Positions 3,157 to 48,495 of a stretch of 64,000 nt of DNA are shown piece after piece; position 1 is the stretch's first letter; every line of letters begins with the position of its first letter. The stretch lies in the NCBI GenBank assembly GCA_014905635.1, contig CM026547.1, forward strand, positions 1,178,001-1,242,000, written 5' to 3'. The stretch is from Scenedesmus sp. PABB004 (Eukaryota). The notes under the pieces are model-generated. The model saw only the letters and a list, made by a program, of their open reading frames with translations. It was not told the DNA's origin and did not search any database. The translations under genes and the position numbers were made by a program.

Positions 3157-3312
3157 CCACCGGCGTGCGACTTTGGGCCAGGCCCGGTGTAGAATCCACA
3201 CAGTTTGCGTCCCGCTCGCCACCGCCGGCGGCCCCGGCAGCGATGGGCTAGCGGCGGCGCCGCGCGCTGCCGCTGCTGCGCCGCGCGGGGCAGCTGCCGC
3301 GGCCGGCCGGCC

Positions 3313-7172: not shown

Positions 7173-7226
<54 letters not shown>

Positions 7227-10200
7227 CCCGCCGCGGGGCGGCGGCACCATCCCCCAGGTCGACGGCGCCGCAGACAGCGACACCGATGACGATTGGGGCT
7301 GCGGCGACGACGTGAGCGCCCAGCTCGGCGCCTCTAGCAGCAGTGACGGCGGCAGCGCGGAGCGCTCGCAGGGTCTGGCGGCGGGGCTGAGCAGCGAGGA
7401 GGAGCTGCCGCCAACTCAGCCAGCGGACGCGGCTGCCGCAGGCTGCGCGGAGCAGGGCGGGGGCGACGAGGAGGACGCGGCGCCGACCCAGGAGCTGCCG
7501 GCGGCGCTGGCGGGCGCTGCCAGGCCCGCGCCTGGGCCTGGCCCGCGCGTGGTGTCGGGCTTGTTCAGACCCGCCCGGCAGGCATCAGAGCCGGCGGCCC
7601 TCGCAGGTGCGGAGGCAGCTGCGGAGGTAGCTGCGGAGGCGGTGGGAGTCACAGCGGCGGCGGCGGCGCAGGAGCAGCAGCCAGCAGCGCAGCACAGCCC
7701 AGACGCAGGGGCGCTTGCCAGCCCCAGTGCAGGCAGCCCCTGTGTGCCGCTGAGCCTTCGCATGCTCGAGGTGCTGGGCGTGTCTGACAACCCCAGCAGC
7801 GGCGACGGCAGCGGCGACGGGGCCGACGGGGGCGTGGACGCGGCGGCGCAGGCTCGGCCGTCTCAGCCGCCGGCGTCCGCGGGCGAGGGGCGGCCGAGCC
7901 AGCGGGAGCAGCAGCAGTGGCAGGCGTGGCAGCAACAGTATGGGCAGCCGGCAGAGCTGGCGGGCAGCGCGCAGCTGCTGCTGCGGCTCTCGGGGAGCAG
8001 CGGCGCTGGTGGGACCTCGCAGCTGGCCCCTGGCGAGCCGGGTGTTAGTAGTGGCACGCCGGCAGCAGCGCCCGCAGACGCGGCTGGCCTCGCCGTGCCG
8101 GGCTCGCGGCCGCCGCAATCTGCGGGAACCGCTGCCGGCGCCATCGACCTGACCTCCGACACGCCCGCCACTGGGGCGGCAGCAACAGCGGCGGCTGGCG
8201 GGCACACGCAGAGCCAACCGGACCCGCCCGAGGCCCCCCTGGCCCGCGTGCTCAGCTTTGAGCTGCCAAGCAGCCAGGTGACGCTCACGCCGCCGGCGCC
8301 CGGTGGCGGGGGCGCGCGGACGGCGGCCGCACAGCAGCTGGCGCCGTTGGGGCTCGAGCAGCAGCAGCCCGACGCCATGGACGTGGACGGCGAGCAGCTG
8401 TCAAGTGGCTGGCCGGGCAGCAGCGCCGCGCACGGCGCGCGGGAGCAGCCGTCGCTGCGCCTGCAGCTGTCGCCGCCCTCGCAGGCGGCCCAGCCGTGGC
8501 AGCAGGGCGGCGGGCAGGCGCTGCCACCGTCGCCGGAGCAGCTGCCTGGCGCCGGCGCCGCAGCCTCCAGCCTCGCCATCGCTCGGCTGGTCGTGCTGCG
8601 GCCGCGGGCCAGGCCGCCAGACCCAGCGACCGCGGCGGAGGGCATGGCTGCGCTGGGGCTGCTGCCGGTGGCCCACCAGGAGCCGTTCTATGGCCGGCCG
8701 GCGGACAAGCCACACCAGCCCGTGGTCTTTGCGGGGCGCGAGTTCAAGTGCGGCGGCGCGCGCGGCAGCCGCGCGCCTGTGGGCCCGGCGGCGCTGGCTG
8801 ACCCCGGCCGACCCCCGCCCCCGCAGGATCCCTTCGTCCGCGGACGTGCCCGACTTTGTCTCTCACGTGCCGCCCAGCGCCGGCAACGCCGCCGACGGAC
8901 GCGGCGCGCTGGCGCGGCTCCGTGCGGCGCTGCGGCAGCCCGGCGAGCCGGGCGCGGATGCCGACGCGGACGCGGATGAGCTGCCGCGCTCGCCGCGGCG
9001 CGAGCAGCGGCACGCGCTGCTGCGCCGGCAGCTGGACGCCGCGCGCGCGGCCGACGCAGCGCTGCCGCAGCGCTATCGCGGCGTCGTGGTGCTTCAACTG
9101 CCGGTCAAGCCGCCCAGCCGCGCCCAGACAGAGGCGTGGCTGGCCGCGGAGGCGGCCAAGGCCGCGGCGCGGCGCAGCGGGCGCGGCGCGGCGGGCGCCC
9201 GCGTGCGGCCGTTTGCTGCGGCGGCCGCGCGCGGCGCGCCGGCGCCGGCGCCGGCAGCAGCGGTGGAGGCAGCGGGCGCGCTGGCGGCTGGGCGGGCGGG
9301 CGGCAGCGGGCTGGTGATGGATGCCAACAGCGGCAGGCTCGTCCCCGCCACGCCAGCCGCTCATCCCGGCAGCAGCTCCGGCGCGGCGAGCGGGGTGACG
9401 CCGCGCGGCAGCGCCGCGGCGGGCTGGAGCGGCGCGTTCCCCGCCGCCGCGCTGCGCGCCGCGGCCACGCCAAGCGGCGCGGCGCGCGGCGCCACGGCGG
9501 GCGCCGGCAGTCAGGCGAGCGACGACCCCGACGGCGAGCTCGGCCTGCTGGCCACGCCCAACCTGCTGCTGTCGCTGCCCGCGGCGTCGCAGCACGAGGA
9601 CGGCTCGCGCCGCTGCTCCGCCCCGGCCGGCGGCCGCAGCCAGCTGCCCGGCCAGCCGCAGCAGGATGACGAGGAGGGCGCCAGCGAGGGCGGCAGCGAG
9701 GGCGAGGAGGAGCTGGAGGCGCCGGCGTCGCCAAAGTATGACGAGCGCACGTTCTTCTTCTCAGAGCCCAAGCGCAGCAGCACGCGCGGCACGGCGCGGC
9801 GGCGGCGCTCGGGCAGCGCCGGTGGCGGTGCCGGTGGCGGTGCTGGCGGCGGCGGCGGCGGCGGCAGCGGCGCGGACACCGCGGCTGGGCCAGGCGCGGC
9901 GGTGGCGGGCGCCGCCCTAGCGGGCGGCGCGGCACCGACCCCCAGCTCGCGCGGGACGGCGGTGTCGCCGCTGGCGCTGGCGGGGCACGGGGAGCACATC
10001 ACCCCGCCGGCGCCGCCGGGCGGCTCGGCCGCGGCGGGCTCCAAGGCCGGCGCCGGCGGGAAGACGCCGCCGAGCCAGCTCGGCTTCAAGCAGGCGCAGC
10101 AGGGCTCGCGGCGGGCGCCGCAGCTGGAGCTGAGCATCCTCGCTGTCGAGGTGCACGCGGACAGCAGGGGCGCCCTGCTGCCCGACCCGCGGTGCGCGGG

Positions 10201-13200
10201 CGCGGCCGCCGGCGGCGCCGCGCGGCCGCGGGCGCCGCGGCCCGCGCCCACGCTCACGCCGGCCGCCGCCCTCGTCCCGCCGTCGCCGCCGCAGGTACGA
10301 CGCGGTGCGCGTGGCCGCGCTCGTGCTGCTGGCGCCGCCGCCGCCGGGCGGCGCCGCGTCGCGGCAGTCCTGCAAGGTGGTGCGGTACCTGGTGTGGGAC
10401 CCCAAGCACCCGGCGGCGGCCGCGGCGGCGGCGGACGCCGCTGCGCGGGCCGCTGCAGCTGGCGCGCCGGCGCCAGCGCCGCCGCACCAGCAGCACGCGC
10501 ACCAGAACCAGCATCAGCAGCAGCACCAGCAGCAGCACCAGCAGCACTACCCCGCTGGCGCGCCGCCGCTCGCGCCCGCCGCCGCGGCGACGGGCGCGCG
10601 CGATGCGGACGCCGCCGCCGCTGCGCGGCAGATGCTGCGGCTGCCGACGCTGCCGCCGGTGGACGCGCCAGTCGCGCGCGTGCCGCCGGGGCGCGACTGG
10701 GACGGCCTGCTGCGCTGCCTCACCCTCGGCGGCGCCGTGCCGCGCGCGGCGCAGGCGGCCGGCGCGGCCGACGCCGGCGGGGGCGGGCCGGGCTCCGGCC
10801 CCGCCGGCGGCCCCTCGCCCGCGCCGCCGCCGCCGGCGGCGCCGCCGCCGGCGCCGGCGCCCGTCCAGCTGGCCTACTATGACAGCGAGCTGGCGCTGCT
10901 GCAGGGCTTTGCGGGCGTGGTTCAGGCGCTCGACCCGGACGTGATCGTCGGCTGGGACCTGCAGACCGGCAGCCTCGGCTACCTGGCGGACCGCGGCGCG
11001 CAGCTGGGCTTCAACCTCCTGCGCGCCGCGTCGCGCACGCCCGAGGTGCGCGGCACGGCGCCCCCCGTCCCGGTGGCGGCGCCGCGGCGCACGTACGAGC
11101 GCCCGCCCGCCCGCCCGCCGCGCCGCGCAGCTGCCCGGCCTGCGCGAGGGCTCCGACGACGCGTGGGGCCGGCAGCACGGCAGCGGGCTGCACTCGACCG
11201 GCCGCATCCTGCTCAACTGCTGGCGGTGCGCGGCTGGGGGCGGGGGCCGGCGCGGGCGGGCGGGGACCGGGCTGGGCCGGCGCCGCAGCCAGCCGGCCGC
11301 GCGCCGCCGCCGCGGCGCCCCGACCTGGCCCCGCGCGCCCTGGTAGGCTGATGGTCGGCGAGCTCAAGCTGGCGCACTATTCGCTTGAGGCCTGCGTGGC
11401 GGCGGTCCTGCGGCGCCGCGTGCCGCTCGTGGCCCAGCCCACGATGGCCGCGTGGTTCGCCGGCGGGCACGCCTGCGGGCGCTGGCGCTGCCTGTCGCGC
11501 CTCGCGTGGCGCGCCGCGCTCGTGCTGGACCTGCTCGACACGCTCGACCTGCCGGGGCGCACCGCCGAGCTCGCGCGCACGTACGGCATCGACTTTTTCA
11601 GCGTCATCAACCGCGGCAGCCAGTACCGCGTGGAGAGCATGCTGCTCCGCCTCGCGCACAGCCAGAACTATCTCGCCGTCTCGCCCACTAAGGAGCAGGC
11701 GCGCACGGCGCACCGCCTGCCCCGCGGCCGCACACTCCGCGGCCGGAGGCGCGCCCTTTGACCCCCGACGCCGCCGCCGCCGCCGCTGCACGCCGCGCGC
11801 CGCAGGTGGGGTCGCAGCCCGCGACCGAGGCGCTGCCGCTGGTGATGGAGCCCGAGTCGCGCCTGTACAGCTGCCCCGTGGTGGTGCTGGACTTCCAGAG
11901 CCTCTACCCCAGCCTGGTCATCGCCTACAACCTCTGCTACTCCACCTGCGTCGGCCGCCCCGCGCACGCCGCGGCAGCGGCCGCGGCTGCCGCGGCCGAG
12001 GCGCGCGCCGCGCTCGCGGCCGCGGCCGCGGCCGGCGGCAGCGGCGGCGACGGTGGCGGCGCGGAGCAGGCGCCCGGCGCGGGCGTGCGGCTCGGCGTGA
12101 CGAGCTACGCGCCGCCCGCGAGCGCGCTGCTGCGGGGCGGGCCGTGCGAACCGGCGCGCCTCGTGCTCGCGCCCAACGGCGTGGGCTTTGTGCCGCCGGG
12201 CGTGCGGCCGGGCGTGCTGCCGCGGCTGCTGCACGAAATCCTCGCCACGCGCGTCATGGTCAAGGCGGCGATGAAGCGAAACAAGGCAGACAAGGCGCGC
12301 CCCGCGCCCGCCAACCCAAGGGCTGGGGGCGCAGCTGCGGGACGCGGCCGGCGGCTGCGGCGGCGCCGGCTAGAGAGCGTGCGCGACCAGCGCCCGCGCC
12401 CCGCCGCACGCCGCACGCCGCGCGCCGCGGTGCGCGCAGGTGCTGCAGCGCTGCCTCAACGCGCGCCAGTTTGGGCTCAAAATGATCGCCAACGTGAGCT
12501 ACGGCTACACGAGCGCCGGCTTCAGCGGCCGCATGCCCTGCGCGGAGCTGGCCGACGCGATCGTGCAGGCACGCGCCGCGGGGCACAGGGCGCGGGGCGC
12601 GGGGCGGTTTGCAGCCGCCGCCCGCGCGCGGCGCGCGCCCACGCGCCACGCCCACGCGCCGTGCCGCGCCCTCGCCTTCTCTCGCCCCCCCCCCCCAGTC
12701 GGGGCGGCAGACGCTGGAGAACGCGATCCGCCTGGTCGAGGGCAGCGCCGCGTGGCGCGCGCGCGTCGTGTACGGCGACACCGACAGCCTCTTCGTCGCG
12801 CTGCCGGGGCGCAGCCGCGCCGAGGCGCACGCGATCGGGTGCGGACCCGCGGGGCGGCGCCGCCGCCCACCGCCGCGCGTCGCGGGCGCCCGCCAGCGCA
12901 CGCGGCGGCCCGCCGCCCGCCGTGACCCGCCGCGCCCGCATGCGCGCCGCAGCGCGGAGATTGCGGCGGCGGTGACGGCGGCCAACCCGCGGCCGGTGAC
13001 GCTGAAGCTGGAGAAGGTCTACCACCCCTGCCTGCTGCAGACCAAGAAGCGCTACGTGGGCTACGCCTACGAGTCCCCCGAGCAGCGGCTGCCGGTCTTT
13101 GACGCCAAGGGCATCGAGACCGTCAGGCGCGCGGCAGGGAGGGGGGCTGCGCGCGGCGGGCGGAGCGGGGCGGCGGCGCGCGAGCGCGCGCGTGCCGCGC

Positions 13201-14680
13201 GCCAACCAACGCCCGCGGCGCCGCGCCGGCCGCGCGCAGGCGCGACAGCTGCCCCGCGGTCGCCAAGATGCTGGAGGCCTGCCTGCGCCTGCTGTTTGCG
13301 TCCAAGGACCTCAGCCAGGTCAAGGACTACTGCGCCCGCCAGTGGGCCAAGATCCTCGGCAGCCGCGTGTCGGTGCAGGCGCGCGCCGCGCCGCGCCGCG
13401 CGCCGACCCGCTCCCGCCCCGGCGCCGCCCGCGGCCGGCCGCTTGGCTCAACCGAAGGACCCCTCCCCCCCCCCCCTCCCCTCACACCCCCCCCCCCCCA
13501 GGACTTTGTGTTTTGCAAGGAGGTCCGCCTCGGCAGCTACGCGCCGACCGCGGCCACGCTGCCGCCGGCGGCCATCGTTGCGGCCAAGGCCATGGCCGCC
13601 GACCCGCGCGCGGAGCCGCGCTACGGCGAGCGCGTGCCCTACGTGGTGCGCCGCGACGCATCCCGCCACATCCGCACCTGCGCACGCCGCCGCGCCCGCC
13701 AGCTTGCCGCGCGGCCCGCCGCCGCACCCGCCAGCGCGCCGCACCACCGCGCCGCCGCGCCGCCGCCGCCGGCGCCGGCGCGGCAGGTCGTGGCGGGCGC
13801 GCCGGGGTCGCGCCTGGTCGACCTGGTGGTCAGCCCCGGCGCGCTGGTGCAGCAGGAGGGCGGCGGCCGCGGCGCGCTGCGCCTGCACGGCACCTACTAC
13901 ATCACAAAGCAGGCGCGCCCCGCGCCGGCGCGCTGCTGTGCCGCCCGGCCGTGCTGCGCCGCGCTGCGCGGCTGCGCTGCGCGGCCGGCGCCGCGCGCGA
14001 GGTGCCGCCGCCGTCGCCGCCGGCCCGCCGCGCCGGCGCCGCGGCGCAGATCATCCCCGCGCTGGAGCGCGTGCTGTCGCTCGTGGGCGCCGACGTGCGC
14101 GCGTGGTACGCGGCCATGCGCAAGCCCACGCGCCTGCTGCCCCAGAAGCGCCCCAGCGCCGCGCTCGCGCTGCCCGCCGCGCCGCCGGCGGCGGCGGCGC
14201 CGGCTTTGCGCTCGCCGCGGCGCTGGCGGGCTTTGACGCCGCGGGCGGCCGCGCGCCCGGCGGCGCCGGCGCGGGCGCGGGCCCCCTGGCGCCGCCGGGC
14301 CGCCGGCGCCGGCGCCGCACGGCGGCGGGCCGCCGGGCGCGTCCAGCGCGACGATCGACACCTATTACCTGTCCCGCCACTGCGCGGTGTGCGACGAGCT
14401 CACGCGCGCCGCCGACACGCTGTGCGAGCGCTGCCGCGGCGCGCCGTCGGTGTCGGCCGCCGCGCTCGCAGCGCGCGCCGCGCGGCTCGAGCGGCAGCAC
14501 CAGCACCTCGTGCGCCTGTGCCAGAGCTGCGGCGGCGGCGGCGGCTGGGACGGGCGGCAGGGCGGTGTCGTGTGCACCTCGCTCGACTGCGGCGTGTTCT
14601 ATGAGCGCTGGAAGGCGCGCGGCGAGCTGCGCAGCATGGCCGCGCTCGCGGCAGCGGGCCTGGCGCTGCTGTCGGGGTGA
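3313..14680 (+). CDS. REV3: DNA polymerase zeta catalytic subunit (family B), about 20+ introns, long low-complexity middle region
   Basis: N-terminus VRLVAIDHYMAPP...[91 protein letters not shown]; C-terminal CAVC..CERC and CQSC..CTSLDCGVFY; stop TGA 14678-14680. Confidence 0.97.
7174..7224 (+). repeat. (CAG)17 polyglutamine tract in REV3
   Basis: Uninterrupted CAG run. Confidence 0.95.
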
Positions 14681-14980
14681 TGGTGTTGATGTAGAGGCAG
14701 GGGCGGCCGGGCTGAGAGGGGCTGAGGGGCTGAGGGGCCCGGGAAGCTCGGCAGACGGGCGGCGCAACGCCCGCCGTCTGTGGGTCGCGCTCGGCAACCA
14801 CGCACGCTCGCTCAACCTTGCCGTCGCTCGCCCTCGCGCTCTCAGAGTCCGCTCGTGCGTCCTGTGCACGCGAACAGCGGCCTGGCTTGCCGGGGCAGCG
14901 CAGTCAAGGTCAAGGTGCGCCAGCGCCGGCCGGCAGGCCCCGCCGCTCGCCGCGGCGAGCTTCCGACCCGTGAGGGCACG

Positions 14981-17493
14981 ATGATCAGCCCGCCCGCGGC
15001 TCATGAGCAGGCGGCCATGGCCAGCAGCGCGGCTGCCGACGCGGGCGCGAGCTGCGACGACTTTGCTCGTGAGGCGGCCGCTGGCGGGCGCCCCCGGGCG
15101 GCTCACAGCCCGGCCAGGCCCGCTCACTCACGGCCGCCGCCGCTCGCAGTCTATCGCAGCATCGCCGCCGCGCTCCGCGCGGACGACGACGCTGAGTGCG
15201 CCGCGCCGCCGCAAGCGCGCTCCGCCGACCTCGAGGTGGTCATCCCTGGCGACGGCGCGGGCGAGCCGCCGCCGCCGCCCGGCGCGGGCGCGGCGGCAGC
15301 CGCGGCACAGCCGCGCGCGGTCAAGGCGTGCACGCCCGACTTCACGCGGCGCCAGATCCGTTCGCTGCGCCGCCTCTGGCCGATCGCGGCGCCAGAGGTG
15401 AGGACGTCGTCACGCCTGCAGGTGCGCGCAGCCGCGCGCGGGCGCGGCGCGTCGCGCACGGCGCCAGCAGCGCCCGCGCCCTGCGGCACCGTGACGCCGC
15501 GCTGGTGCTGCCACCTTCAACAGGGCGACTACCAGCTGCTGGATGAGCTCGGCCGCGGCGCGTTCGGCACGGCGTGGCGTGCGCGGCACGCCGCCAGCGG
15601 CCGCCTCGTGTGCGTGAAGCAGGTGTCCGCCGGCCGCGCCGCGGCGGAGCTCGCGGCCGAGGTGGCCGTGCTTGCGTCGCTGCGCAGCCACCCCAACATC
15701 ATATCGTACGAAGACAGCTTCATGGCGGCGGGGCGGCTGCACATCGTGATGGAGCTCGCCGACGGCGGCGACCTCGCCGCCCTGCTCGCCGCGCGCCGCC
15801 GCGCCGGCGCGCACCTCACCGAGGATGAGGTTCTCGGCTACCTGGTCCAGGTGCGGGAGGCCGCTGCCGCTGGCGAGCTGGCCACCTGCGTGATCGATCT
15901 CGCGCGGCGGCGGGGCTCCTGTGCCTAACGCTGCCGCGCCGCGCAGGTGTTGTCGGCCCTGGCCTTCAGCCACGCGGCGGGCGTGCTGCACCGGGACGTC
16001 AAGCCCGCCAACCTGCTGCTGGGCGGCGGCGGGCTGCTCAAGCTGGCAGACTGGGGGCTGAGCAAGGTCCTCAGCGCGGGCCCGACGAGCGACGGCGGCG
16101 CCGCGCGGCAGCCAAGCGGCGGCGGCGGCACGCTGCCGGACGCGCGCGCGGGCCCGCTCGCGACGAGCTTCGTCGGCACGCCGGCCTGCATCGCGCCGGA
16201 GCTGCTCGCGGCGGCGCCGACCGGCTACAACATGCGCGCGGACGTGTGGGCGGCGGGGTGCCTGCTGTTCGAGATGGCCGCGCTGCGGCCGCCGTTTGCG
16301 GCGGAGCGCGTGGCCGCGCTGTACCGGCTCATTCGGCGCGGCCACGCGCTGGCGCTGCCGCCGCGCTGCAGCGCCGCGCTGCGCGGCCTCGTGGCGCGCA
16401 TGCTGGCGCCCGACCCCGCGGCGCGGCCGAGCAGCGCGGAGCTGCTGCAGGACGAGCTGCTCGCGCCGCACCTCACGCGCCACCAGCAGCGCCTGCGCGA
16501 GCTCGGCCTGGAGCTGCCGCCGCTGCCGTGCGCGCCGCCGGGGGGCGCCTCGGCCGCCGGCAGCCTCAGCGCCGGCGGCGGCGCCAGCGCCGCGGGCGCG
16601 GCGCGCGGCGCTGGCGACAGCGCAGCGGGCAGCTGCAGGGCAGCGAGCTGCAGCGGCAGCGGCGCGGGCTCGGCGCTCTCCTTTCGACGCGCCGCGCCGC
16701 TCGCCAGCGCGCCAGCTGCAGGCGCAGCGGCCGACCCGCTGCCCGCGCCGGGCGGGAGGCCAACCGGCCCGCTCCAGCGCCTGGTGCGCAGGTGGCTGGG
16801 GCGAGCCGCCAAGCCCGCGGCGCCCGCCGGCGGCGGGCCTGGCCAGGCGGGGCAGCGCGCCGCTGCGCAGGCGGCGGCGCCGCGGGAGCTGCGCTGCTTC
16901 GCGCCGCCCGGGCACGCGCTCAGCACCGTGGTCAGCGGCGGCAGCAGCCAGCACAGCGCAAGCCCCCGCGCGTGCGACAGCAGCGCGGGCGGCGGCGGCA
17001 GCGCGGCCAGGGTGCCGGCCGCAGCAGCAGCTGCAGCAGCAGCACCGAGCAGCGCAGCCCCAGCCGCCGCCGGCGGCGCGGCGCCTCCCTCGCGCTGGTC
17101 CAAGATGCTGGCGGCGTCCGGTCTGGCCGCGGCGGTCGGCTGCGGCGATGGCGCCGCGCCAGCACCCCCAGCACGCCGGCCCAGCCGGAGCAGCAGCAGC
17201 AGCAGCAGGGCGAGGTCCAGCCGCTGCGGACCATCAGCGAGCGCAGCGAGGGCTGTGCGGCGCCACGGTCGGCGGCGGCCAGCCCCGCGTCCTGCGCCTC
17301 GCAGCCAGCGCCGCCCGAGCTACGGCTGTGGCAGGAGCAGGTGGCGGCGGCGGAGGCGGTGCGGGGGCTGCGCGAGCGCCTGGGCGCGCGGCGCGGCGCG
17401 GCGGCCAGCCCTGGCTGCCGCAGCTGGGGCAGCCGCAGCGAGGCGTCGCCGACCGGCAGCGCGGCGCCGCTGGCAGCGAGTCCAGGGACGTGA
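14981..17493 (+). CDS. NEK/NIMA-like Ser/Thr kinase (start and 3' end uncertain; introns about 15422-15523 and 15851-15946)
   Basis: LGRGAFG, VCVKQV, HPNIISYEDSF, LHIVMELADGGDL, HRDVKPANLLL, DWG, FVGTPACIAPE, YNMRADVWAAGCLLFEMAALRPPF. Confidence 0.85.
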
Positions 17494-17829
17494 GGCAGGG
17501 GATTGGGGCTGTGGGGAGGCATGCATTTCAGCCGAAACTCCCGGCGGCCTGCGGCCGAAACTCGCCGTCACGCCCCGCCAAAACGACGCTCCCGCAAAAA
17601 GCCCAGCGCGCCACACACCCACGCTGAGGTCCTCCCGCCGCGCGGGCGCATTCCGCGCAGCTCCGGGACCCGCTAGCCGCACCCTTGACAGCCTCTCACG
17701 CCGCGCGACAGCGCCGCGAGCAGCAACCGCCGCGCCGCGCCGCACGGCCCGCCGCCGCGCGCCTGAGCGGCGAGCCTGACCCACGAGCGCGCCTGAGCCG
17801 CCCTCCGCTCCGCCGGCCCGGCGCCGGGC

Positions 17830-20403
17830 ATGGCCGCCTTCCCGCCCGGCGCGCCGGCGCCGCTGCAGCTCGTGAGCGTCGACCCCGACAGCGGCGCGGT
17901 CTCGTGCGGCGCGGAGGCGCTGGCGGCGCTGCGCGCGATCAGGACGCCCGTGGCGGTGGTGGCCGTCTGCGGGCGCGCGCGGACGGGCAAGAGCTACATC
18001 CTCAACCAGCTCCTCGGGCAGAGCACGGGCTTCCGGCTCGCGCACAGCCACCGGCCGTGCACCAAGGGGCTGTGGATCTGGAGCCAGCCCTTCAAGCGCG
18101 TGGGGCCCGACGGCAACGAGTTCCACGTGGTGCGCGCGCGCGCGCAGGGGGGCGGGCGGCCGCGCGCCGCCGCGCGCGCCAGCCAGGCGCCAGCACCCGC
18201 GCACGACTCCACCACCCCCGCCGCCGCCGCCGCCGCGCGCAGGTGCTGCTCGACTCGGAGGGCATCGACGCGTACGACCAGCGCGCGCAGGACGGCGTGC
18301 AGCTGCTCTCGCTCGCGGTGCTGCTCGCGAGCAGCTTTGTGTTCAACCAGATGGGCCCCATCGACGAGGCAGCGCTCGACCGGCTCAGCCTGGTCACGCA
18401 GATCACCAAGCACATCCGCGTGCGCGCGACCGGCCCCGCCGCGGGTGCGGGCACCAACGGCGCCGTCGCCTGGCAGCGGTCGGGGCGCGCCGCGGCAGCG
18501 CGCCGCCGGGCGAGCGGACGGACGCCCACCGCCCCCTCCGCCGCGCCGCCCGCGTGCGCGCGCAGAGGACGCGAGCGAGCTGTGCTCGTTCACGCCGTCC
18601 TTCATCTGGCTGCTGCGTGACTTCTACCTAGACCTCGAAGAGGACGGACGCAAGGTGGGGCTGTGACGCCGCGGCGCCGCAGGGCGACGCGCGCCCGCGC
18701 CGGCGCCCTCACGCTGCAGCAGCACACCGGCAGGCGCAGCGGCCCCGCGGCGGCGCTCGACGGCGGCGCCCGCGCCGGCCGCGCGGGGCGCAGGTGTCGC
18801 CGCGCGAGTACCTGGAGACGGCGCTGTCGCCGTCGGCGGGCGCGGGCGCGGCGGTGGAGGCGAAGAACCACGTGCGCGCGCCTGCGCCCGCCCGCGGCCC
18901 GCCGCCCCGCGCCGACCCCCCAGCCGCGGCGGCGCCACGGCGGCGCCGCGCTGCTGCTGCGACACAGGCCGTCGGCCGCCGCCGCCGCCGCCGCCGCGCG
19001 CAGATCCGTGGCAGCATCAAGTCGCTCTTCCCCGACCGCGACTGCTTCACGCTGGTGCGCCCGATGCACGACGAGCGCGCGCTGAACCACCTCGACGCGC
19101 TCAGCCCCGACCAGCTGCGCCCCGAGTTCCAGGAGGTGCGGCGACGGCGGCGGCGGCGGCGGCGACGGTGGCGACGGCGGCGGGGCCTGCGCCAGCGGCA
19201 GGCCGAGCGGCCGCAACCCCCGCCCCGCCGACCGCCGCCGCAGGGCGTGGCGCGCCTCACGCGGCTGCTGCTGGCGCGCGCGCAGCCGAAGCGCGTCGGG
19301 CTCGCGCCCGTGAGCGGCGCGGTGCTCGCGGGCCTGGCCGAGGCCTACTGCGCCGCGATCAACGCCGGGGCCGTGCCCACCATCGCGACCGCGTGGCAGG
19401 TGCGGCGCCGCGCCGCGCGGCCGCCGCCGCCGCGCTGCGCAGGTCGCCGCGCGGCCGCCCACCGCGCGCGCGCCGCCCGCCCCGGCCGGCCGGCGTTGCA
19501 GGGCGTGGCCGAGGCGGAGTGCCGGCGCGCCGCGGCCGCCGCGGAGGAGACGTACCGGCAGGAGTTTCAGCTCGACGGCGCGGCGGCGGAGCCCGAGTCG
19601 CTGCTGCTGGAGCACCTGGTGCGCGCGCGGGGCGGGCGTGGGTGGGGGGCGGGCGCCGGCGGGCGCGCCTCACGCGCGCGACCGCCCGCATGCGCCCGCG
19701 GCGCAGCGCTGCGTGGCGGCGGCCAAGAGCACGTTCAAGGCGATCGCGGTCGCGGAGCCGCGCGCGCGCGCGGCGGCCAAGGCCGGCCTGCTGGAGGCGC
19801 TGGAGGCGCGCTACGCGCTGATACGGGAGGGCGCGCTCGCGCGCGCGGCGGCGGGCGTGGACGCCGCGCTGCTCACCGCGGCGCAGCAGATCAGCACGGT
19901 GCGCGGCGGCGGCGCGCCCGCCCCAGGGGGGGGTGCTCTCGTCTCGCCCTCGCCGCGCCCTCACCGCGCCCACGCCGCGCCTCTCCTCACCGCGCCCGCG
20001 CCCGCGCCAGGCGGTGCGGCTGCACAGGAGCTGGGCGGACGTGCAGGCGCAGGTCGGCCGCACGACCGCCGAGTATGACGCCGCGACGGCGGGGCCGACC
20101 AAGTGGCCGCGGCTCACCGCGTTCCTGCAAGCCCACTACGGCCACATGGTCGCCGACTTTGTGCAGCGCTGCGAGGCCGACGCCGACAGGCGCGTCGCCG
20201 AGGCGCGCGCCGCGGCGCGCGAGGCCGAGGCGCGGCTCGGCCGCGCGGAGAGCCTGGCGGCCAAGGCCGAGACGCACGCGCGCGACCTCGCGACGGCCGA
20301 GGCGGCGCTCAAGCAGCAGCTCGCGCTCGAGCGCGACCGGCGGTCGTCGAGCTTCGGCGGGTTTGGCTTTGAGAGCTGCTGCAAGGCGCCCGCGGCGCTG
20401 TGA
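17830..20403 (+). CDS. Guanylate-binding protein (GBP/atlastin-family large GTPase), about 10 exons
   Basis: P-loop VAVCGRARTGKSYILNQLLG, CTKGLWIWS, LLDSEG, FIWLLRDF, IKSLFPDRDCFTLVRP, AINAGAVPTIATAWQ, helical C-terminus; stop TGA 20401-20403. Confidence 0.93.
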
Positions 20404-20971
20404 CCGCGGCCGTGGTTTTTGTCGCGCGGGCGCTGCGATTGCCGCCCCCGCCATTTCATGCTCGCGGCGGCGCAGGGAGGGCGACCCTGGTGAAACGTCC
20501 TCTCCCAGCTGCCCGCGCTCCAGCCCTCCACGCCCCTGCCGTCGCCGCCGCTCCTGCCGCCGCCCTTGGCGCTGCCGGCCCTCACGATCGCGGGGGGCGC
20601 GGGGACGCGGCGCGGCGGCGCGCACCAGGTCCACACTGCCCAGATCCACGCCCCCGTCTGTGCGGCCCCCACCCCAGCTCGTGGCGGCCTGCGGTTGTGT
20701 GTTACACAAAACCCCCGGCCGTGCACAGCCGCGCGCGCTCGCAACAGCGTAATCACCTGACCTGACGGCGCGGTGCACGTGTGCGGCGCGCCGCGCGACC
20801 GCACCGGCGCCCCCCCCCCCCTCACGCGCTTCCCGCCGCCGGCAGCGCGCGGCGCGCCCTGCCGAGCGCGTTGATCGCGTTGATCGCCGCGCGGCGCCCC
20901 CCCCCCCAGCTGGGTGCGGCAGCGACCTGCAGGTCGCGGCGCCGCGCCGCCACGCCCGCCTCAGCCCAGTC

Positions 20972-21050
20972 GGGCACGGCCTCGCCCCCGTCCAGCACGA
21001 CGGTGGCCAAACTTGGCATCGTCGTGCTCGACGAGGGCGACGCCGTGCCC
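20972..21050 (+). ncRNA. Stem-loop 1 (pre-miRNA-like)
   Basis: GGGCACGGC/GCCGTGCCC, TCGCCC/GGGCGA, CGTC/GACG, AGCACGACG/CGTCGTGCT, GCCA/TGGC, separated mostly by single mismatches. Confidence 0.55.
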
Positions 21051-21158
21051 TTGAGCGCCCAGCCGGGCTCGCGCCGGCCGTGCTGGTTGAAAGGCTGGCG
21101 CTGGCCAGCGACAGCGCTCCAACAAGCACGGCCGGCGCGAGCCCGGCTGGACGTTCAG
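21051..21158 (+). ncRNA. Stem-loop 2 with a perfect 26-bp inverted repeat (pre-miRNA-like)
   Basis: 21059-21084 CCAGCCGGGCTCGCGCCGGCCGTGCT is the exact reverse complement of 21125-21150. The stem extends by GTTG/CAAC inside and TGAGCG/CGTTCA outside. Confidence 0.6.
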
Positions 21159-21415
21159 GTTTGGCACCGTCGTGCCGGACGGGGGCGAGGTGAGGGTGAA
21201 ACGCGAGTGAGAAGCAGCGCCTCAACCTGCGCGCGGCGGCGGCGCGGCGCGCGGCGCGGCCGCGCGCGCCAGAGGCGGGGCAGCGCAGCGCAGCGGGCAG
21301 GGGGCGGCCACCCGCGCCCTGCGCCCGCCGAGCCCACCAGGCAGAGCCAGCGGGGGGAGGTGGCTGGCTGGCTGGGCCTGGTGGAGTCGGCGACGAGCGC
21401 CACAAACGCGGCTGC

Positions 21416-21533
21416 CTGCTGCCGCCCGCGGCGCGCTCACGTCGCCCATCACGTCGGACCAGGAGCTCTTGTCGGCACGCTGACAAGAGGTTCTGGTCGG
21501 ACGTGGTGGGCGGCTGAGCGCGCCACGCAGCAG
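21416..21533 (+). ncRNA. Stem-loop 3 (pre-miRNA-like, stem of about 43 bp)
   Basis: GGCGCGCTCA/TGAGCGCGCC, GTCGCCCATCACGTC/GACGTGGTGGGCGGC, GACCAGGA/TTCTGGTC, CTCTTGTCGG/CTGACAAGAG; 4 G-U pairs and no A-C mismatches on the + strand. Confidence 0.6.
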
Positions 21534-21589
21534 CTGGTGCTGCAGCGGAGCCGCCCCCCGCCGCCGCTCCTGCGCGCGTTTCGATGGGG

Positions 21590-21687
21590 CAGCGTGCCAC
21601 GGATCTTGGCGCTCCGAGCAGGCGTTGTACACCGCGCCCAGGCGGTGTTCAACCACAGCCTGGAGCGCCAAGATGCGCGGGCAGCTG
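21590..21687 (+). ncRNA. Stem-loop 4
   Basis: ATCTTGGCGCTCC (21603-21615)/GGAGCGCCAAGAT (21662-21674) is perfect; inner GTTG/CAAC and ACACCGC/GCGGTGT; outer TGCC/GGCA and CAGC/GCTG. Confidence 0.55.
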
Positions 21688-21703
21688 GAGCTCCTCGCGC
21701 GTG

Positions 21704-21791
21704 CCGTGGCGGCGTGGCACCTCGTGCTGGTTGATGTTCAGGAAGCCAGGCTTCTTCAACTTCAAACACCACGAGTTGCTAGGCACTGCGG
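21704..21791 (+). ncRNA. Stem-loop 5
   Basis: TGGCA/TGCTA, CTCGTG/CACGAG, TG/CA, TTGA/TCAA, GTT/AAC, AGGAAGC/GCTTCTT, with regular 1x1 mismatches. Confidence 0.5.
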
Positions 21792-22025
21792 CGGAGCAGC
21801 AGCAGCAGCGGTGCTCGGCGGCCGCGCGGCGGCGCCGCGTGCCCCTGCCCGGGCGTGGAGTGGGCCCGCTGAGCGAGGGCAGGGGAGGTGCGCCGCCCGC
21901 GGCCGTGCGCCGCCCGCGGCCGCGCGCCCGCCGCGCCGCAGGGCCCCAGAACCCAGGCGGCGGCGCAACTTTCGCCAAGGTCGCGGCGCCGCGCCGCCAG
22001 GCGGGGCAGCCGCCTCTCGGCCGCC

Positions 22026-22080
22026 CGCCGCGTTTGTGCGTGGAGAGCAGGATCCCTGCTGACCAAGCGCCAACGCGGCG
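22026..22080 (+). ncRNA. Stem-loop 6 (shorter)
   Basis: CGCCGCGTT/AACGCGGCG, GTGC/GCGC, TGG/CCA, AGCAGG/CCTGCT. Confidence 0.4.
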
Positions 22081-22557
22081 CGCAGAGGTCATCCCTGCCC
22101 CCGACGCGCGCGGGGGGTCGTCGATCATGATCTTGGTGTGCAAGGGCGCGCCGTGCTGAGCGGGCCGCCGGGCGGCGCGGCGGCGGCGGCCCAGCGCGCG
22201 CCGCGAGGCTGGTGTGCCGTCGCGGGCGGTCGAGGAGATGAGGCCAGGGCGGTGCAGTGGCGGCAGCGCGTCTGCGGTGCGGTGCGGCGTCGAGGCGGCG
22301 CGCGGCGCGAGCTGGCGCAGGTGGGGGGGGGGGGCGCGGGAGGCGCGCGCGGGAGGTGAGCGCGTGCGCACGCGCCGCGCCTGCGCCGGTCAAAGCTGCT
22401 GGCGACCCGGCGCCGCCTGCGTCGGCGCTCCCAAAGCGGCTCGGCACCGCCATGAGCGGCGGGCGGCAGGGGAGGGCGCTCGGCGCTCGAAGAGGGGCGG
22501 TCAACGTGGCGCGCGTTGCCGCCCGGTGCGCCGCAGGGGGCATGCGGCTTCCTCGTC

Positions 22558-22666
22558 ATCCTCGCTGCCGCCGGGGGTCGTGGCGCTTCGGCGGGTTCGG
22601 CTGCAGCTCTCGCAGCTGCACGGCCAGCGGCGCCTGTGTGACGGCCGCGCTTTTGGCACCGAGGGT
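22558..22666 (+). ncRNA. Imperfect long stem-loop (weak)
   Basis: ATCCTCG/CGAGGGT, TGCCG/TGGCA, GGTCGT/ACGGCC, GGCGCT/GGCGCC, TGCAGCT/AGCTGCA. Confidence 0.3.
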
Positions 22667-22891
22667 CACCGATTGCCGCCCGCCCTGTTCACCCTCGCGG
22701 CCCTGGTGACACGTCCTCTCACATATCGCACGCTCCAGCACGCGACAGGGCCCTGCCGCCGCCGCCGCGCCGCTCCTGCTGCTGCCGCCGCTCTCGCCGC
22801 CGCCCCTCGCGCCGCCGCCCTGCTTCGTGCTCGCGCCCGCGGGTAGCTCGCGGCATCCCCTTGCCGCCCGGGTGGCGAGGCGGGCGTCAGC

Positions 22892-23545
22892 ATGCCGCAG
22901 AAGCCGCTCAAGGTGGGGAAGAAGATTGCGAAAGCGCCCGCCGCCAACCGGCATGGCAAGACGCCCAAGATGAAGAAGGGTGAGCGCTCGCGACACGCGC
23001 ACGACGCGTGGGCGGCGACGCGGCGGCTGCGGGCGCCGGCGCGGCGCGGCGCGGGGCGCCGCTGCTCACGGCGGCCGCCCGCCGCTGCCGCCTCGCGTGC
23101 GCAGGCAAGTTCGACCTCAAGCCCAAGAAGGCCGCCCTCGTGGCCAAGTGGAAGGACGAGAAGGTCCGGGGCCAGCGGCGGGCCGGTGGCGGGCCAGCGG
23201 CGGCCCGAGCGCTTGCGCGAGCAGCAGCCCGCGCCCGCGCGCCGCCCCACCGCGCGGCGGCGCCGCCCGGCACATGCCCGCGCAGGACCTGACCAAGATG
23301 ATCAACGCCAACAACGAGTCCAACGCCGCAGCCAAGGCGCAGCAGTCGGGCGGGCACCTCACGGTGGTGCGCGACGCGCGCCCAGCGGCGCGCTGGCCGG
23401 GCAGCAGCCGGGGCGCAACGAGCTCAGGCGCGCGCCGCCGCCGCCGCCGGTGCCGCGGCCGCAGGTCAAGGCCGCGCCCGTGCTGGCGCCGGCGGACGCC
23501 AAGCAGAAGGCCAAGGCCGCCAAGGCGGGCGCGGCGCCGAGCTGA
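22892..23545 (+). CDS. Small basic protein, Leydig cell tumor 10 kDa (C19orf53)/UPF0390-like; exons 22892-22979, 23105-23163, 23286-23366, 23465-23545
   Basis: MPQKPLKVGKK...KKGKFDLKPKKAALV...KDLTKMINANNESNAAAKA...GGHLTVVKA; clean GT-AG introns. Confidence 0.8.
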   Translation: MPQKPLKVGKKIAKAPAANRHGKTPKMKKGERSRHAHDAWAATRRLRAPARRGAGRRCSRRPPAAAASRAQASSTSSPRRPPSWPSGRTRRSGASGGPVAGQRRPERLREQQPAPARRPTARRRRPAHARAGPDQDDQRQQRVQRRSQGAAVGRAPHGGARRAPSGALAGQQPGRNELRRAPPPPPVPRPQVKAAPVLAPADAKQKAKAAKAGAAPS

Positions 23546-29726: not shown

Positions 29727-30855
29727 TCACGCCCGTCGCGCCCGCAGCGTGCGCTGCGGCGGCGTGCGCGCAGGCGACACTGCCGGCACCGCCTCCGCGC
29801 CCGCCGCCTTGCGCTTCCGGCCGGCGCCCGCGCGGCCGCGCGGGGGGCTGGCCTGCTGCGGCGCCTGCTGCTGCGCGCCGCGCGCCGTGGCTCGCGCCCT
29901 CGGCTGCCGCGTGGCCGGGGCGGCAGCCGCCGGCGCTGCGGGCGCAGCGGCCGGCCGGCGCCGCGACCTGGGCGCGGGCGCCGGCTCGGGAGCTGGCTCC
30001 TCGCTCTCCTCCCCCTCGCCCTCGTCGCCCTCGTCGCCCTCGCCCTCCTCGCTGGCGCTGCCGCTGCCGCCCGCTGCTTGCGGCCTGTCCTCCTCGCCGT
30101 CGCCGCTGCTGCTGCTGCCGGGCTCGCTGCCGCCTGCAGCGCCCTCGTCGCTGCCATCGCCGCTGCTGTCGTCGTCGCTGCCGCTGGCGCCCGCGTCCGC
30201 ATCGCCGTCGGCGGCCGGCTCGTCGCCGTCGCTGCCCCAGCCGTTGCTGGCGCCGCCGCCCCAGCCTGGCAGCTCGGCGCTGCCATCCAGCTCCGCGTCT
30301 TTGCCGCTGCTGCTGCCGTCGCCGCTGCCGTCGTCGCCGCTGCCGTCCTGCTCTGCTGCGTCATCATCGTCGTCGTCCTGCTGCATGCTGCTGCCGCCGC
30401 TGCCGCTGCCGCCGTCCTCGCCGCCGGCGCTGCCCGACGCCCAGTCGTCGTCCAGGTCGTCGCCGCCGGCATGGCCGTTTATCTTCAGCAGCCCCGACAG
30501 CTGCTGCTGCTGCCGCTGCTGCTGCTGCTGCTGCTGCTGCGGCGAGCCGGGCGCGCCGTCCGCCTCCGCGTCGCTGCCGCCCCCGCCGGCCTGCGGCTCG
30601 CCGCCGCCCGCCGCGTCGGCGGGCAGCAGCACCTGGCTCGCGGCGAGCGTGTAGTCGAGCAGAAAGGTGCTGCGCAGCAGGCGGTCCAGGCGGCTCGCGT
30701 GGCGCAGGCTGTACGCGAGCAGGCCGTCCAGCAGCTCGCGCGCGCCCGGGACCGCCAGGATCGCCTCAGGGCCGTGGCTCCGCAGCACCGCCTGCAGCAG
30801 CACCTGCGCCAGGTGCGCGTTGCGGCTGGTGGTGTTCCACTCCCTGCGAGGCGGC

Positions 30856-30886
<31 letters not shown>

Positions 30887-33800
30887 GCGGCGGCGGCGGC
30901 GTCGGCGGCTCGTCAGCAGCAGCGCGCCCACGCGCGCCTCCCGCTTCCACCTCCCCCGCACGCGCCGTTGCCGCACCTGCAGTAGCTGAGCGCCGTGGCC
31001 AGCTCCGCCGGCGAGAGGCGCCCCACGAGGCCCTGCAGCGCGCCGAGCGCCGCGGTCGGCCCGCCCGGCTGGCGCCGCAGCACCTCGAGCAGCTTGCCAG
31101 GGTGCTGCAGCTTGAACGCCAGCCGCGCGGCGGACGCGTAGTCGCCGTCCTGCGTGGCAGCGGGGCCGCGCGGCCGGGCGGGTGAGCGGGGGCGCAGCGA
31201 GCGGCGCGCCCGTGGCGTGCGCGCGCTCGCGCGGGCCGACCGGCGCCGCTGCCGCCGCCCGCCGCTCACCGCCAGCGCGTTGGACAGCTCCTGCTGCTGC
31301 AGCACCAGCCCCTCCTCCGCCGCCTCCGCCTCTGCCGCCTTGGCGGCGGTGGCGTCGCGCCAGACCACCACGCGCGCGTCGCCGCCGCCGGTCGCCACCA
31401 GCGCCTCGGCGGGGCCCGACGAGGCTGGGCGCGCGGTCCGCGAGGCGCGGAGCGCCGCGGGTGAGCACGCCAGGCACCACGCAGCAATGAGGTGCGGGAC
31501 ATGCCCCGCGCGGCGCACCTGTCAGGCCCCACACGCGGTCGTCGTGCCCCTCAAACGTGGCCGTGTTGACGCCCGTGCGCGCGTCCCACAGCTTCAGCAG
31601 CCCGTCGGCGCCTGGCGCGGGGCGCGGGGTGTTGGCGGCGTGGGCGCGCGGCACCGCGCGCCGCGCCGCGCCGCGGCGGCGTCCCCCTCCGCACCTGCTG
31701 ACAGGACCTGCGTGCCGGCGGTGGCGAACATGCAGCGCAGCACGCCCGCTGTGTGGCCCTCAAACGTGCGCAGGCACGTCCCCTCGCCCACGCTCCACAT
31801 CTTGACCAGGCGGTCGCCCGACGCCGAGAGTAGCACCTGGTCAACGGGGCTGAACGCGACGCTCCACACCGCGCGCTTGTGCCCGCGCAGCGTCGCGGCG
31901 AGCACCAGGTGGGGCAGGCGCCAGAGCTTGATGACCTTGTCCTGCCCCCCGCTCGCGAGCAGGGCGTCGTTGGGGCTGAACGCGAGCGCCGCGACCTCCT
32001 TGTCGTGCCCCGCGACCGCCGCGAGCGCGGAGAGCGGCGCCGCGGCGCCGGGCGCGCCTGCGCGGGCGCGCGGCGCGCGCGGCGCGCGGCGCGGGCGTGG
32101 GCGCGGCGGGCGGGCGGCCGCGCGCGGGCCGCCGGGGGCCGCCGCCCTGCAGCCCGCCCCGTGGCGCACGCGCGCACCTGCGCCGTCCGCGTCCACGTCC
32201 GCCGTGACGAGCTTGGAGGTGTCCCACACCTTGAGCAGCTTGTCCGCGCCGCCCGTGGCCAGCAGGCGGCCGCCCTTGGCCTTGGACTTGGACCACGCGA
32301 CCGCGGTGATCGCGCCGACGTGCCCCGCCGCGGCCGCGAGGCACGCGCCGCTCGCCGCGTCCCACACGCGCGCCTCGCAGTCCTTGCCGCCCGACGCGAG
32401 CAGCTCGCGCCCGCCCGCGGGGCGCACGGCGTCGAGGCAGAGCACAATGTCGGTGTGCCCCGCGCACGCGCCGACGCAGCTCGCGGTCGCCACGTCAAAC
32501 AGGCGTATGTCGTGGCTGTTCGTCGCGACCGCGAGGCGCCGCGGCTCGTCGGCCGCCAGCGCCAGCCCGTCGCCGCCGCCGGCCGGCGCGGCGCCCGCGT
32601 CGCCGGCGCCGGCGGCGGCGTCGCCGTCGTCGTCGCCGCCGCCGCTGCTGCTGCTGCCGGTGTTGTAGAGGAACGCCAGGTCAGTGATCTCATCCTGGTT
32701 GCCGATCAGCTGCCGCGTGAGGCGCAGCGCGCCGCCGCCGCCGCCGCCGTCGGCGCCCGCCTGCGGCGCGCGCGGCGTCGTCGGCGGCGGTGGGCGCGGC
32801 GGAGTGGCGGCGCTCCCATGCACGCGCGCGCGGGGCGGCGGTCCCGGCCCCGAGCGCCTGCCCTTTGGGGCTGAGCTGAGCTCACCGCGTCGCCGTCGGG
32901 GTGGTAGAACAGCAGCCGCGCGTCGCCCGTCGCCGCGAGGAGGCCCCGGCCGCCGGGCAGCAGCAGCAGCTCCACAAACTCGCTGCCCGGCGCGGCGGCG
33001 GCGCCGTCGTCCGCGCCCGCGGCGGCCGCCGCCCGCTTGCCGGCCTTGCCGCCCTTCTTGGCGGCGCCGCCGGCCGCGAGCAGGCTGCTGCTGCTGCCGG
33101 CGTGCGTGTAGGTGCAGCGCCCCGTGTCGGAGCGCCAGACGCGCAGCACGCCGCGCTCGCCGGCGGTGGCAAAGAAGAGCGGCGCCTTCCCGCCCGCCGC
33201 GGTCGCGGCGGCGGGCGCCACGCCGGGAAAGGCCGACCCCAGCGGCAGCACCGCCAGCCCTGCGCCGGCGGGCGCGCGGGCGGCCGCGCGGGCGGTGAGG
33301 CGCGCGCGCGCGCCCAGCGGCGCCAGCGCCGGCGCATCGCGCGGCGGTGTGCTGTGCCGCCCCGCGGCGCGCGCCGCGGCCGGTGGCGCCGGCCGCAGCG
33401 GTCCGTGCGCGCAGCGGCGGAGTGCTGCTGTGGGCCGGCCGTGAAAGTGAGCACGCGCGTGTAGCAGACGTGACACTGCAGAGCCGGCCCGCTGCGACGC
33501 CTGTGCGGTGGCGCCGCCCGCGCCGCCCCGCGCAGCGCCCCGCGCTGCCCAGTGCCGCTGCCCCGCGCTGCCCAGTGCCGCGCCCCGCGCTGCGCCGCCG
33601 CGCCTCACCCTCGAGTGACTCATACACGGGTATGGTCGCCACGCGCGCGCCGCTGCGCACGTCCCACACGCAGACCACGCGGTCGCGCCCGCCGCTGAGC
33701 AGGTGCCAGCCGTCGGGGCTGAGCGCGAGCGCCGGCACCGCGCTCATGTGGCCGCCGCTGAGCGCAAACGCGCACGACTTGGTCACCAGGTCCCACACGC

Positions 33801-34372
33801 GCACCTCGCCGTCGTCGGCGGCGCTGAACAGCAGCAGCTGCTTGGGGTGGAACAGCACGCGCAGCACGATGCCGCTGCGTGGGGGTGGCGGCGGCGCGGG
33901 GTCGGCGGCAGGCCGCGGGCGGGCGCGCGCGGCCGCGGCAGCCGCCGGTCGCCTGCGCGCGGCGGGCGCATGCCGTCCGCTCCGCGCGCACCCGTGGCCG
34001 GTGAAGTGGTGCGTCACGTAGCCGCCCGCCAGGTCGGTGACCTTGATGGACCGGTCGGCGCTGCCGCTCGCGACGTACCCGCCCGAAGCGTCAACCGCGA
34101 GGTCGGCCACGGGCGCGCGGTGCGGCTGCGGCGCGCGGCGCACGGCGCGCGCGGGGCCGTGTCGGTGTGGGGTGTCGAGCGGCGCGCGGCAGGGCCGCGG
34201 CGCGCGGGCGGCGCAACGCGGTGCGGCCCGCGCGACGGCGGCCGCACCTTCCACGTCCGCTTGCACTCGCCGCTCGCCCAGTCCCAAAGCCGCACCGACA
34301 GGCTGCGGCTCGCCGCCACCAGGCTCTTGCAGTCGGGGCTGATCGCGACGGCAGTGATGGGCTCAGAGTCCT

Positions 34373-34404
<32 letters not shown>

Positions 34405-34833
34405 AGCGGCCACGCGTCGGCGGCAGCGGCGCCGGCCGCCGCCGCCGTGCTCGTCGCAGCAGCTGCCCTCCGGCACCGCGCTCACCCCGGGCAGCGTCTT
34501 GGCCACCGTGCCGGTGGCCACGTCCACCACCTGCGCGCGGGCGCAGCCGGGCGGCGGTCGGCGGGGCAGCAGTGGCGGCTGCGGGCGGCGCCGCGCGCCG
34601 CGGGCGCCGCCGGCACCCGCCGCCCCGCGCCGGGCGGGTGGTGCTGCCGTCCGCCGCCCGCCGCGCCCCGCGCCGCCCTGCTGCGGCGCCCCTGGCGGGC
34701 GCACCTTGACCTCGTCGCCGCACGCGCAGGCCAGGTGCCGCTGGTCGCGCGCGACGCGCACCGCGCCGCCCGTGAAGAAGGCCTCCAGCCGGCTCACGGG
34801 CTCGTAGACGGCCTTGGCCGCCAGACCCGCCAT
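29727..34833 (-). CDS. UTP13: U3 snoRNA-associated WD40 protein UTP13/TBL3, about 13 exons
   Basis: N-terminus VYEPVSRLEAFFTGG; WD repeats (GHTDIVLCLD, GHKRAVWSVAFSPVDQVLLSASGD, LRTFEGHTAGVLR); LIGNQDEITDL; Utp13 C-terminal domain QQELSNAL...EWNTTSRNAHLAQ. Confidence 0.93.
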
Positions 34834-35115
34834 GGCGGCGAGGGCCGCCCAGCAGCGGCGCGCGGGCACGCAGCGGGGACGCCACGCGTCGCGGTGAGCG
34901 GCTGGCGTGGCCGGACAGCTTTTGGAGGCGGTCGCGGGGTGCTGTGCCTCTTTCTGGCGCTGGCAGCGCGGCGGGCGCCTGTCGCGAGGTCCAAACTCAG
35001 CGGCCCGGCACCCGCGCGCCGCGCCCTGCATCCCCCCACTGTTCGCCCGCATCGATCAACGCCTGAAGCGTGCCAGCCCGTCCTCAGCGCGCTGCGTCGC
35101 GCGGCAGGAGCCAAA

Positions 35116-48476: not shown

Positions 48477-48495
48477 TTTGGCTGCTCGCGAGCGC

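Follow-up and report, generated by a model that had tools for sequence, protein, structure and literature searches.

Clustered inverted-duplication hairpins in a gene-free interval of Scenedesmus sp. PABB004: a candidate small-RNA precursor locus

We analyzed a stretch of 64,000 nucleotides of nuclear, intron-bearing DNA from Scenedesmus sp. PABB004 (GenBank assembly GCA_014905635.1, contig CM026547.1, positions 1,178,001–1,242,000), referred to here as the window and numbered from its first nucleotide. Between the stop codon of a guanylate-binding protein (GBP) gene (17797–20403, + strand) and the ATG of the next gene (22892, + strand) lies an exceptional cluster of discrete foldbacks in a gene-free gap, spanning 20972–22080. 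An earlier, sequence-only reading of this interval had named six well-formed stem-loops, designated H1 to H6 below, and had proposed that they form a clustered microRNA (miRNA) precursor or another structured RNA.

Every hairpin in the cluster is a local inverted duplication, with arms that are 73–89% identical and a spacer of 0–11 nt. H1 (20972–21050) consists of arms 20972–21008 and 21014–21050, which are complementary at 32 of 36 positions and differ by one gap. H2 (21051–21158) is a spacer-less palindrome centered at 21104/21105, complementary at 44 of 51 positions and including a perfect run of 26 bp. The arms of H3 (21416–21533) pair at 40 of 47 positions with one gap, those of H4 (21590–21687) at 35 of 46, those of H5 (21704–21791) at 30 of 41 with one gap, and those of H6 (22026–22080) at 20 of 25; H5 has the lowest GC content, and its arms are the most codon-like. 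A seventh hairpin, weaker than these six, lies at 21326–21392 and had been missed by the sequence-only reading. The arm differences of the six named hairpins amount to 45 substitutions and only 3 gaps, and the stems are still continuous.

We compared the RNA folding of each hairpin with 200 dinucleotide shuffles on each strand. The z-scores for H1 to H6 were −11.1, −12.1, −11.8, −6.1, −4.5, and −7.3 on the + strand, where none of the 200 shuffles was equally stable in any of the six cases, and −11.9, −12.2, −9.8, −6.9, −2.5, and −5.4 on the − strand. This result indicated that the six named stem-loops are real, with + strand z-scores of −4.5 to −12.1 placing them far beyond the stability of the dinucleotide-shuffled controls. 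The seventh hairpin gave z-scores of −3.5 (+ strand) and −3.7 (− strand), again with 0 of 200 shuffles as stable. By the same test, two weaker stem-loops that had been proposed at 22085–22134 (z +0.5 and +0.9) and 22558–22666 (z −1.4 and −1.7) were at chance level. A 16-bp palindrome reported at 20922–20937 is present but unremarkable, since this GC-rich window contains 49 palindromes, this one included, that have no spacer and span 16 bp or more. The hairpins were retained in 1251-nt single-molecule folds of both strands, and the sequence between them folded at the level of the shuffles (z +0.3 to −1.7), so that structure is limited to discrete stems. The summed minimum free energies (MFEs) of the six hairpins were similar on the two strands (−404.8 kcal/mol on the + strand and −383.4 kcal/mol on the − strand).

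The concentration of these structures was examined by a scan of the whole 64 kb in 3196 overlapping 100-nt segments, with MFE regressed on GC content. The five most over-stable of the 3196 segments start at 21421, 21441, 21061, 20961, and 21601, and all lie within 20961–21700. A search of the entire window for inverted repeats with no more than 40 nt between the arms returned, elsewhere, only GC low-complexity pairs. If hairpins fell at random in 64 kb, the chance of six being so clustered would be ~1e-8; with an assumed 27 kb of non-coding DNA as the only permissive part, it would be ~7e-7. The clustering is thus far from uniform and needs a local cause, whether selection, a hotspot, or one complex event. 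The sequence-only reading had held that the A/T-bearing, non-repetitive stems were unlikely to be chance pairing. That conclusion stands, but because each stem is an inverted duplication, an explanation that is silent on function.

The arrangement of the copies is most legible at the left end of the cluster. The 86-nt unit at 21105–21190 recurs as its reverse complement at 20972–21104, and this left copy holds an extra 38-nt piece (21014–21050) that is the reverse complement of its neighbor. One segment is present in three copies, A, B, and C; A agrees with C at 31 of 33 positions, and the + strand fold uses the A–C pairing. Copy C of the H1 arm (21157–21190) pairs with 20980–21013 (31 of 33) and repeats 21013–21040 in direct orientation; this third copy shows H1, H2, and C to be nested products of inverted duplication. 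In H3, the final codons of an exon-like piece were duplicated along with 11 nt past a GTGAGC: the − strand arm ends in GAC/GTGAGC (the slash marks the junction), and the mirror arm carries CTGAGC. A copy that runs across an exon–intron-like junction points to copying at the DNA level. Comparison of the hairpins with one another and with the rest of the window, both as DNA (blastn) and as six-frame translations (tblastn with translated arms), revealed no shared sequence; each arm matched only its own mirror arm or GC low-complexity DNA. In each hairpin, a reverse-complement copy stands beside its source across a short spacer, which is the arrangement expected of template switching.

The DNA around the hairpins carries further traces of duplication. 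The interval is flanked on both sides by a diverged direct repeat, one copy of which is formed by the end of the last GBP exon with the start of the 3′ untranslated region (UTR) (20337–20586, + strand). The second copy of this GBP 3′ end (22571–22811, + strand) is non-coding and lies directly upstream of the ATG at 22892. The two are 67% identical over 267 columns (blastn, E 3.6e-15), with blocks of 88–89%. The downstream copy lies 2.2 kb from the original, has lost the reading frame, and is now where the promoter or 5′ UTR of the next gene would be. A 25-nt direct repeat (24 of 25 positions; 20931–20955 and 21978–22002) brackets H1–H5, with weaker similarity beyond; this repeat is GC-rich and could be chance. 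Judging from these repeats and copies, the region was clearly restructured in the past. Runs of ~10–13 C or G residues flank the cluster on both sides (20813–20825, 20899–20908, and 22325–22337), and a 17-nt tandem repeat of 2.4–3 copies with 88–95% matches occupies the GC-rich spacer between H5 and H6 (21888–21939). Tandem repeats (periods 17 and 15) are confined to the spacer and the flanking repeat, with none inside the hairpins.

We assessed protein-coding potential with a spliced-gene scorer that combines codon log-odds, GT-AG introns, and an intron penalty, and as a control we scored 28 tiles of 2250 nt, some of which overlap training exons, whereas many of the high-scoring ones do not. 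Gene-bearing strands of the tiles scored 48–222 bits and opposite strands 1–36 bits. The best gene models in 20650–22900 reached 20.4 bits (− strand) and 16.4 bits (+ strand). These scores are within the non-gene range, and the interval therefore behaves as non-gene DNA on both strands. The tile at 20251–22500 scored 41 bits on the + strand, which probably reflects the last GBP exon inside it, and was the only tile-sized stretch without a strong gene model. Gene density is otherwise very high, every other 2250-nt tile having one strand or both with a strong gene model; the tiles at 33751–36000, 38251–40500, 47251–49500, and 51751–54000 had good scores on both strands.

Homology searches agreed with the absence of a gene. 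A Pfam search of 20 stop-to-stop open reading frames (ORFs) in or overlapping the interval, together with the last GBP exon and the first-exon region of the next gene, gave nothing near a gathering score. For the 110-aa − strand ORF at 20825–21154, a word-index search that yielded 538 candidates among proteins of 60–193 aa found no homologue at E ≤10. Its sole HMMER match among 1.84 billion representatives, P0001, was rejected as spurious. P0001 is a translated tandem repeat of 1078 aa with ~16 copies of a unit of ~66 residues, and its E value of 5.9e-11 came from adding up weak matches in 16 stretches; the case illustrates how repeat-inflated scores can mislead. Taken together, the gene-model scores (20.4 and 16.4 bits against 48–222 for gene strands) and the lack of a Pfam match or credible homologue in these searches bear out the view of the sequence-only reading that there is no gene in the interval.

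We had at first favored a − strand gene here, and dropped it on the tile controls. It would be a small or decayed gene with partly palindromised exons, in which one arm of each of H5, H3, H2, and H1 is an exon and the mirror arm lies in the preceding intron. Several arms do have exon-like codon usage, at 0.55–0.8 bits per codon compared with 0.4–0.7 in four verified coding segments outside the training set. The H3 − strand arm is preceded in the loop by TGTCAG/ and ends in the GAC/GTGAGC junction described above, and a − strand model of 5 exons and 145 codons can be built, with its stop at 20822 and a TGTAA motif 116 nt downstream. Segments of at least 11 bits also numbered 3 in 1.7 strand-kb of hairpins, against 11 in 38.25 strand-kb of null strands (0.29 per strand-kb), but this codon-like enrichment is marginal because two of the three segments are mirror copies of H5. 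The model itself scores in the non-gene range (20.4 bits against 1–36), the + strand scores nearly as well, the 110-aa terminal ORF has no true homologue, and no Pfam match was obtained. Differences between arms number 14, 11, and 11 at the three codon positions, an even distribution with no third-position excess. We consider a gene of this kind very improbable. The arms may nonetheless derive from gene fragments, without present protein conservation.

The setting of the interval is extremely GC-rich, at 73–84% GC in 500-nt bins across the window; the 100-nt segments that hold hairpins have 61–73% GC, compared with ~80% in the DNA around them. Pfam searches of long ORFs identified, in addition to the GBP gene, a REV3-type DNA polymerase (~3193–14677, + strand), a protein kinase (14726–17776, + strand), and a UTP13/WD40 gene (29730–34362, − strand), the ORF of which is 65% identical to a chlorophyte UniRef entry, which places the window among chlorophycean algae, and is 40% identical to a protein of Sanguina aurantia. 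The next gene after the interval encodes a small basic protein and has a GTGAGC donor after its first exon. A scan for transfer RNAs found none.

We next considered which strand could be transcribed. The only TGTAA motif in the interval, a possible polyadenylation signal, is on the − strand at 20702–20706, so placed that a transcript of that strand would reach it after passing through the cluster, and it overlaps a + strand TGTTA at 20699–20703. TGTAA occurs 7 times in the window against 2.56 expected, a count that none of 100 shuffles reached; with only 7 in 64 kb, the majority of the genes seem to rely on other signals. The composite TGTTACA (20699–20706), ~300 nt past the GBP stop codon, could be a polyadenylation signal shared by convergent transcripts. 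The TGTTA at 20699–20703 may signal where the GBP mRNA ends, ~300 nt after the stop, in which case the hairpins would lie outside the GBP 3′ UTR. The sequence-only reading had assigned the structure to the + strand, a choice that found no support in the similar MFE sums, the sole TGTAA on the − strand, or wobble pairs that are not significantly in excess.

On these grounds, our leading but still tentative interpretation, held at somewhat less than an even chance, is that the interval serves as a precursor of hairpin small RNAs, a non-coding locus that arose through inverted duplications of the template-switch type. Stretches of 25–86 nt were each copied as the reverse complement beside themselves, as expected of replication template switching or snap-back synthesis, and the copies have since diverged to their present 73–89% identity. 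The interval would be transcribed as a non-coding RNA, with the − strand slightly favored because of the TGTAA at 20702–20706 and with + strand readthrough also possible. A Dicer-like enzyme could then cut the long near-perfect stems into ~21-nt hairpin small interfering RNAs (siRNAs) or miRNA-like RNAs. For the structural side of this proposal we used the criteria that Axtell and Meyers reportedly set out in 2018, namely a foldback of <300 nt and a miRNA/miRNA* duplex with ≤5 mismatched positions, ≤3 of them in asymmetric bulges. All six hairpins conform to this MIRNA foldback structure on both strands: their best 21-nt segments have 0–5 unpaired positions per side, placed symmetrically. In the folding models, all six stems are thus predicted to be structurally competent Dicer substrates on either strand.

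A small-RNA precursor was ranked first because the stems are structurally Dicer-competent and because Chlamydomonas DCL3 cleaves such hairpins; Valli et al. (2016, PMC4817775) describe its cleavage of hairpins in non-coding RNAs, introns, and UTRs, and even of those in coding exons. An H/ACA small nucleolar RNA (snoRNA) pair is not supported: Rfam returned no snoRNA family, the stems lack the large internal loops that would form pseudouridylation pockets, and reading of the 16-nt H4–H5 spacer and the 3′ flanks found no H box (ANANNA) or ACA box on either strand.

Several results weigh against a small-RNA precursor. At E ≤1, Rfam gave 7 matches, all below the gathering score and all generic hairpin matches to unrelated animal and plant miRNA models, the best being mir-4672 with 37.1 bits against a gathering score of 98; no described miRNA family was reached. 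Of the original proposal, the structural half holds, in that the interval is gene-free with an exceptional hairpin cluster; the miRNA half gained no positive support from the Rfam and metagenome searches or from the mismatch spectrum. A search of the rest of the window for targets of the stem 21-mers, allowing ≤3 mismatches, gave 31 hits, all of them GC-rich low-complexity sequence, whereas coding control segments gave 439 hits in the same scan. About 0.1 TGTAA would be expected in the interval by chance, so this motif is weak evidence for a − strand transcript. The arm mismatches of the six hairpins comprise 19 transitions and 26 transversions, and because transversions predominate, most mismatches break pairing on both strands. 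On the + strand, G-U positions do outnumber A-C positions, as the sequence-only reading had noted, but the difference of 12 against 7 is not significant (binomial p=0.36). The mismatch spectrum gives no strand and no signal of selection for RNA pairing. Divergence between arms is homogeneous among the hairpins (chi-square p=0.38), which fits a single old complex rearrangement followed by neutral decay, without proving it. As far as sequence comparison can tell, the locus is in no described family and carries no sign of selection on structure.

The hairpins could instead be neutral rearrangement debris, left by one complex repair or replication event (repeated fold-back or template switches at a break) or by a local hotspot and now decaying without function in the one gene-free gap of any size in this region. 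The homogeneous arm divergence, the lack of a G-U excess over A-C, the predominance of transversions, and the even spread of arm differences over codon positions are all consistent with such an origin. The bracketing 250-nt GBP duplication, the A/B/C triple copy, and the 25-nt direct repeat mark past structural upheaval, and Rfam, HMMER, and metagenome searches found no conserved relative or family. In the metagenomes, a query with the C-terminal GBP exon gave 597 pattern stretches, none of which was confirmed by tblastn, and an exact 29-nt apical piece of H3 had no match. Debris of this kind is nevertheless hard to reconcile, without a local cause, with a 1.1-kb stretch that holds seven snap-back products when the other ~62 kb hold none. 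The 3 gaps against 45 substitutions, the continuous stems, and the Dicer-competent structure of every hairpin also argue against simple decay. Moreover, in the alga where this was studied, such hairpins are processed once transcribed, irrespective of any selection for them (PMC4817775). We regard functionless debris as somewhat unlikely, but as a strong competitor of the small-RNA precursor and second to it in rank.

A stack of short palindromic transposons, resembling the foldback elements known as miniature inverted-repeat transposable elements (MITEs), in a gene-free landing zone could likewise place several hairpins in one gap. The elements are 55–118 nt long and almost wholly self-complementary, their GC content of 61–73% is lower than the ~80% around them, they sit in the one intergenic gap, and MITEs are a known plant source of miRNA hairpins (PMC9641971). 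However, no second copy of any arm was found elsewhere in the 64 kb at the DNA or six-frame peptide level, inspection of the flanks by eye revealed no target-site duplications, and the hairpins are mutually unrelated, with H1, H2, and C explained by nested local duplication. An origin from such elements is improbable. The small-RNA precursor interpretation can also be extended to a young polycistronic small-RNA gene of a Sphaeropleales-like green alga, in which seven unrelated, Dicer-competent hairpins arose by serial template switches of gene-like fragments, H3 with its exon–intron junction among them, and yield hairpin siRNAs or miRNAs acting on the source genes of those fragments; this fuller scheme we think unlikely.

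If small RNAs are made from this locus, it would be a compact example of de novo hairpin RNA gene birth, with a legible duplication anatomy of nested copies, zero-length spacers, and a splice junction copied in H3. It would then also be a natural polycistronic scaffold, with seven hairpins, in an alga of extreme GC content. If none are made, the locus would be a scar that complex rearrangement left at this place, and its interest would be limited.

Several known systems offer points of comparison. In Drosophila, endogenous siRNA loci of the hairpin RNA (hpRNA) type produce long inverted-repeat transcripts, sometimes with several hairpins, that Dicer converts to siRNAs, and the hairpins of such a locus are paralogues of one another in tandem, descended from a known target. 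The present locus resembles them in having long inverted repeats and several hairpins at one place, but here the hairpins are mutually unrelated and no target was found in the window. Plant MIR genes are said to arise by inverted duplication of target genes, in the model that Allen et al. reportedly put forward in 2004. Consistent with this model, the arms described here are gene-fragment-like, with codon-like periodicity and the copied exon–intron junction of H3. The differences are that no parent or target gene was found in the window or in homology searches and that the coding-like signal is marginal. In this lineage, miRNA annotation comes mainly from Chlamydomonas and Volvox.

The mode of origin that we propose has its closest counterpart in primates, where template switching yields 30–55-nt stems in one step, some of which become miRNA genes, according to Mönttinen et al. 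(2023, PMC10710096). The events in that work are single mammalian events inferred from outgroup genomes, whereas here we see a cluster with arms that are 11–27% diverged, and the H1/H2/C copies imply successive nested events. The likeness lies in the adjacent reverse-complement copy, the stems of 25–53 nt, and the short loops (PMC10710096). With respect to processing, the nearest parallel is provided by the DCL3 precursors of Chlamydomonas reinhardtii. The locus described here packs seven unrelated hairpins into 1.1 kb of a gene-free gap and is known from sequence alone; it is like those precursors in its chlorophycean host, its long near-perfect stem-loops, its lineage-specific character without a conserved family, and its location in what would be a non-coding RNA or the non-coding part of a transcript (PMC4817775).

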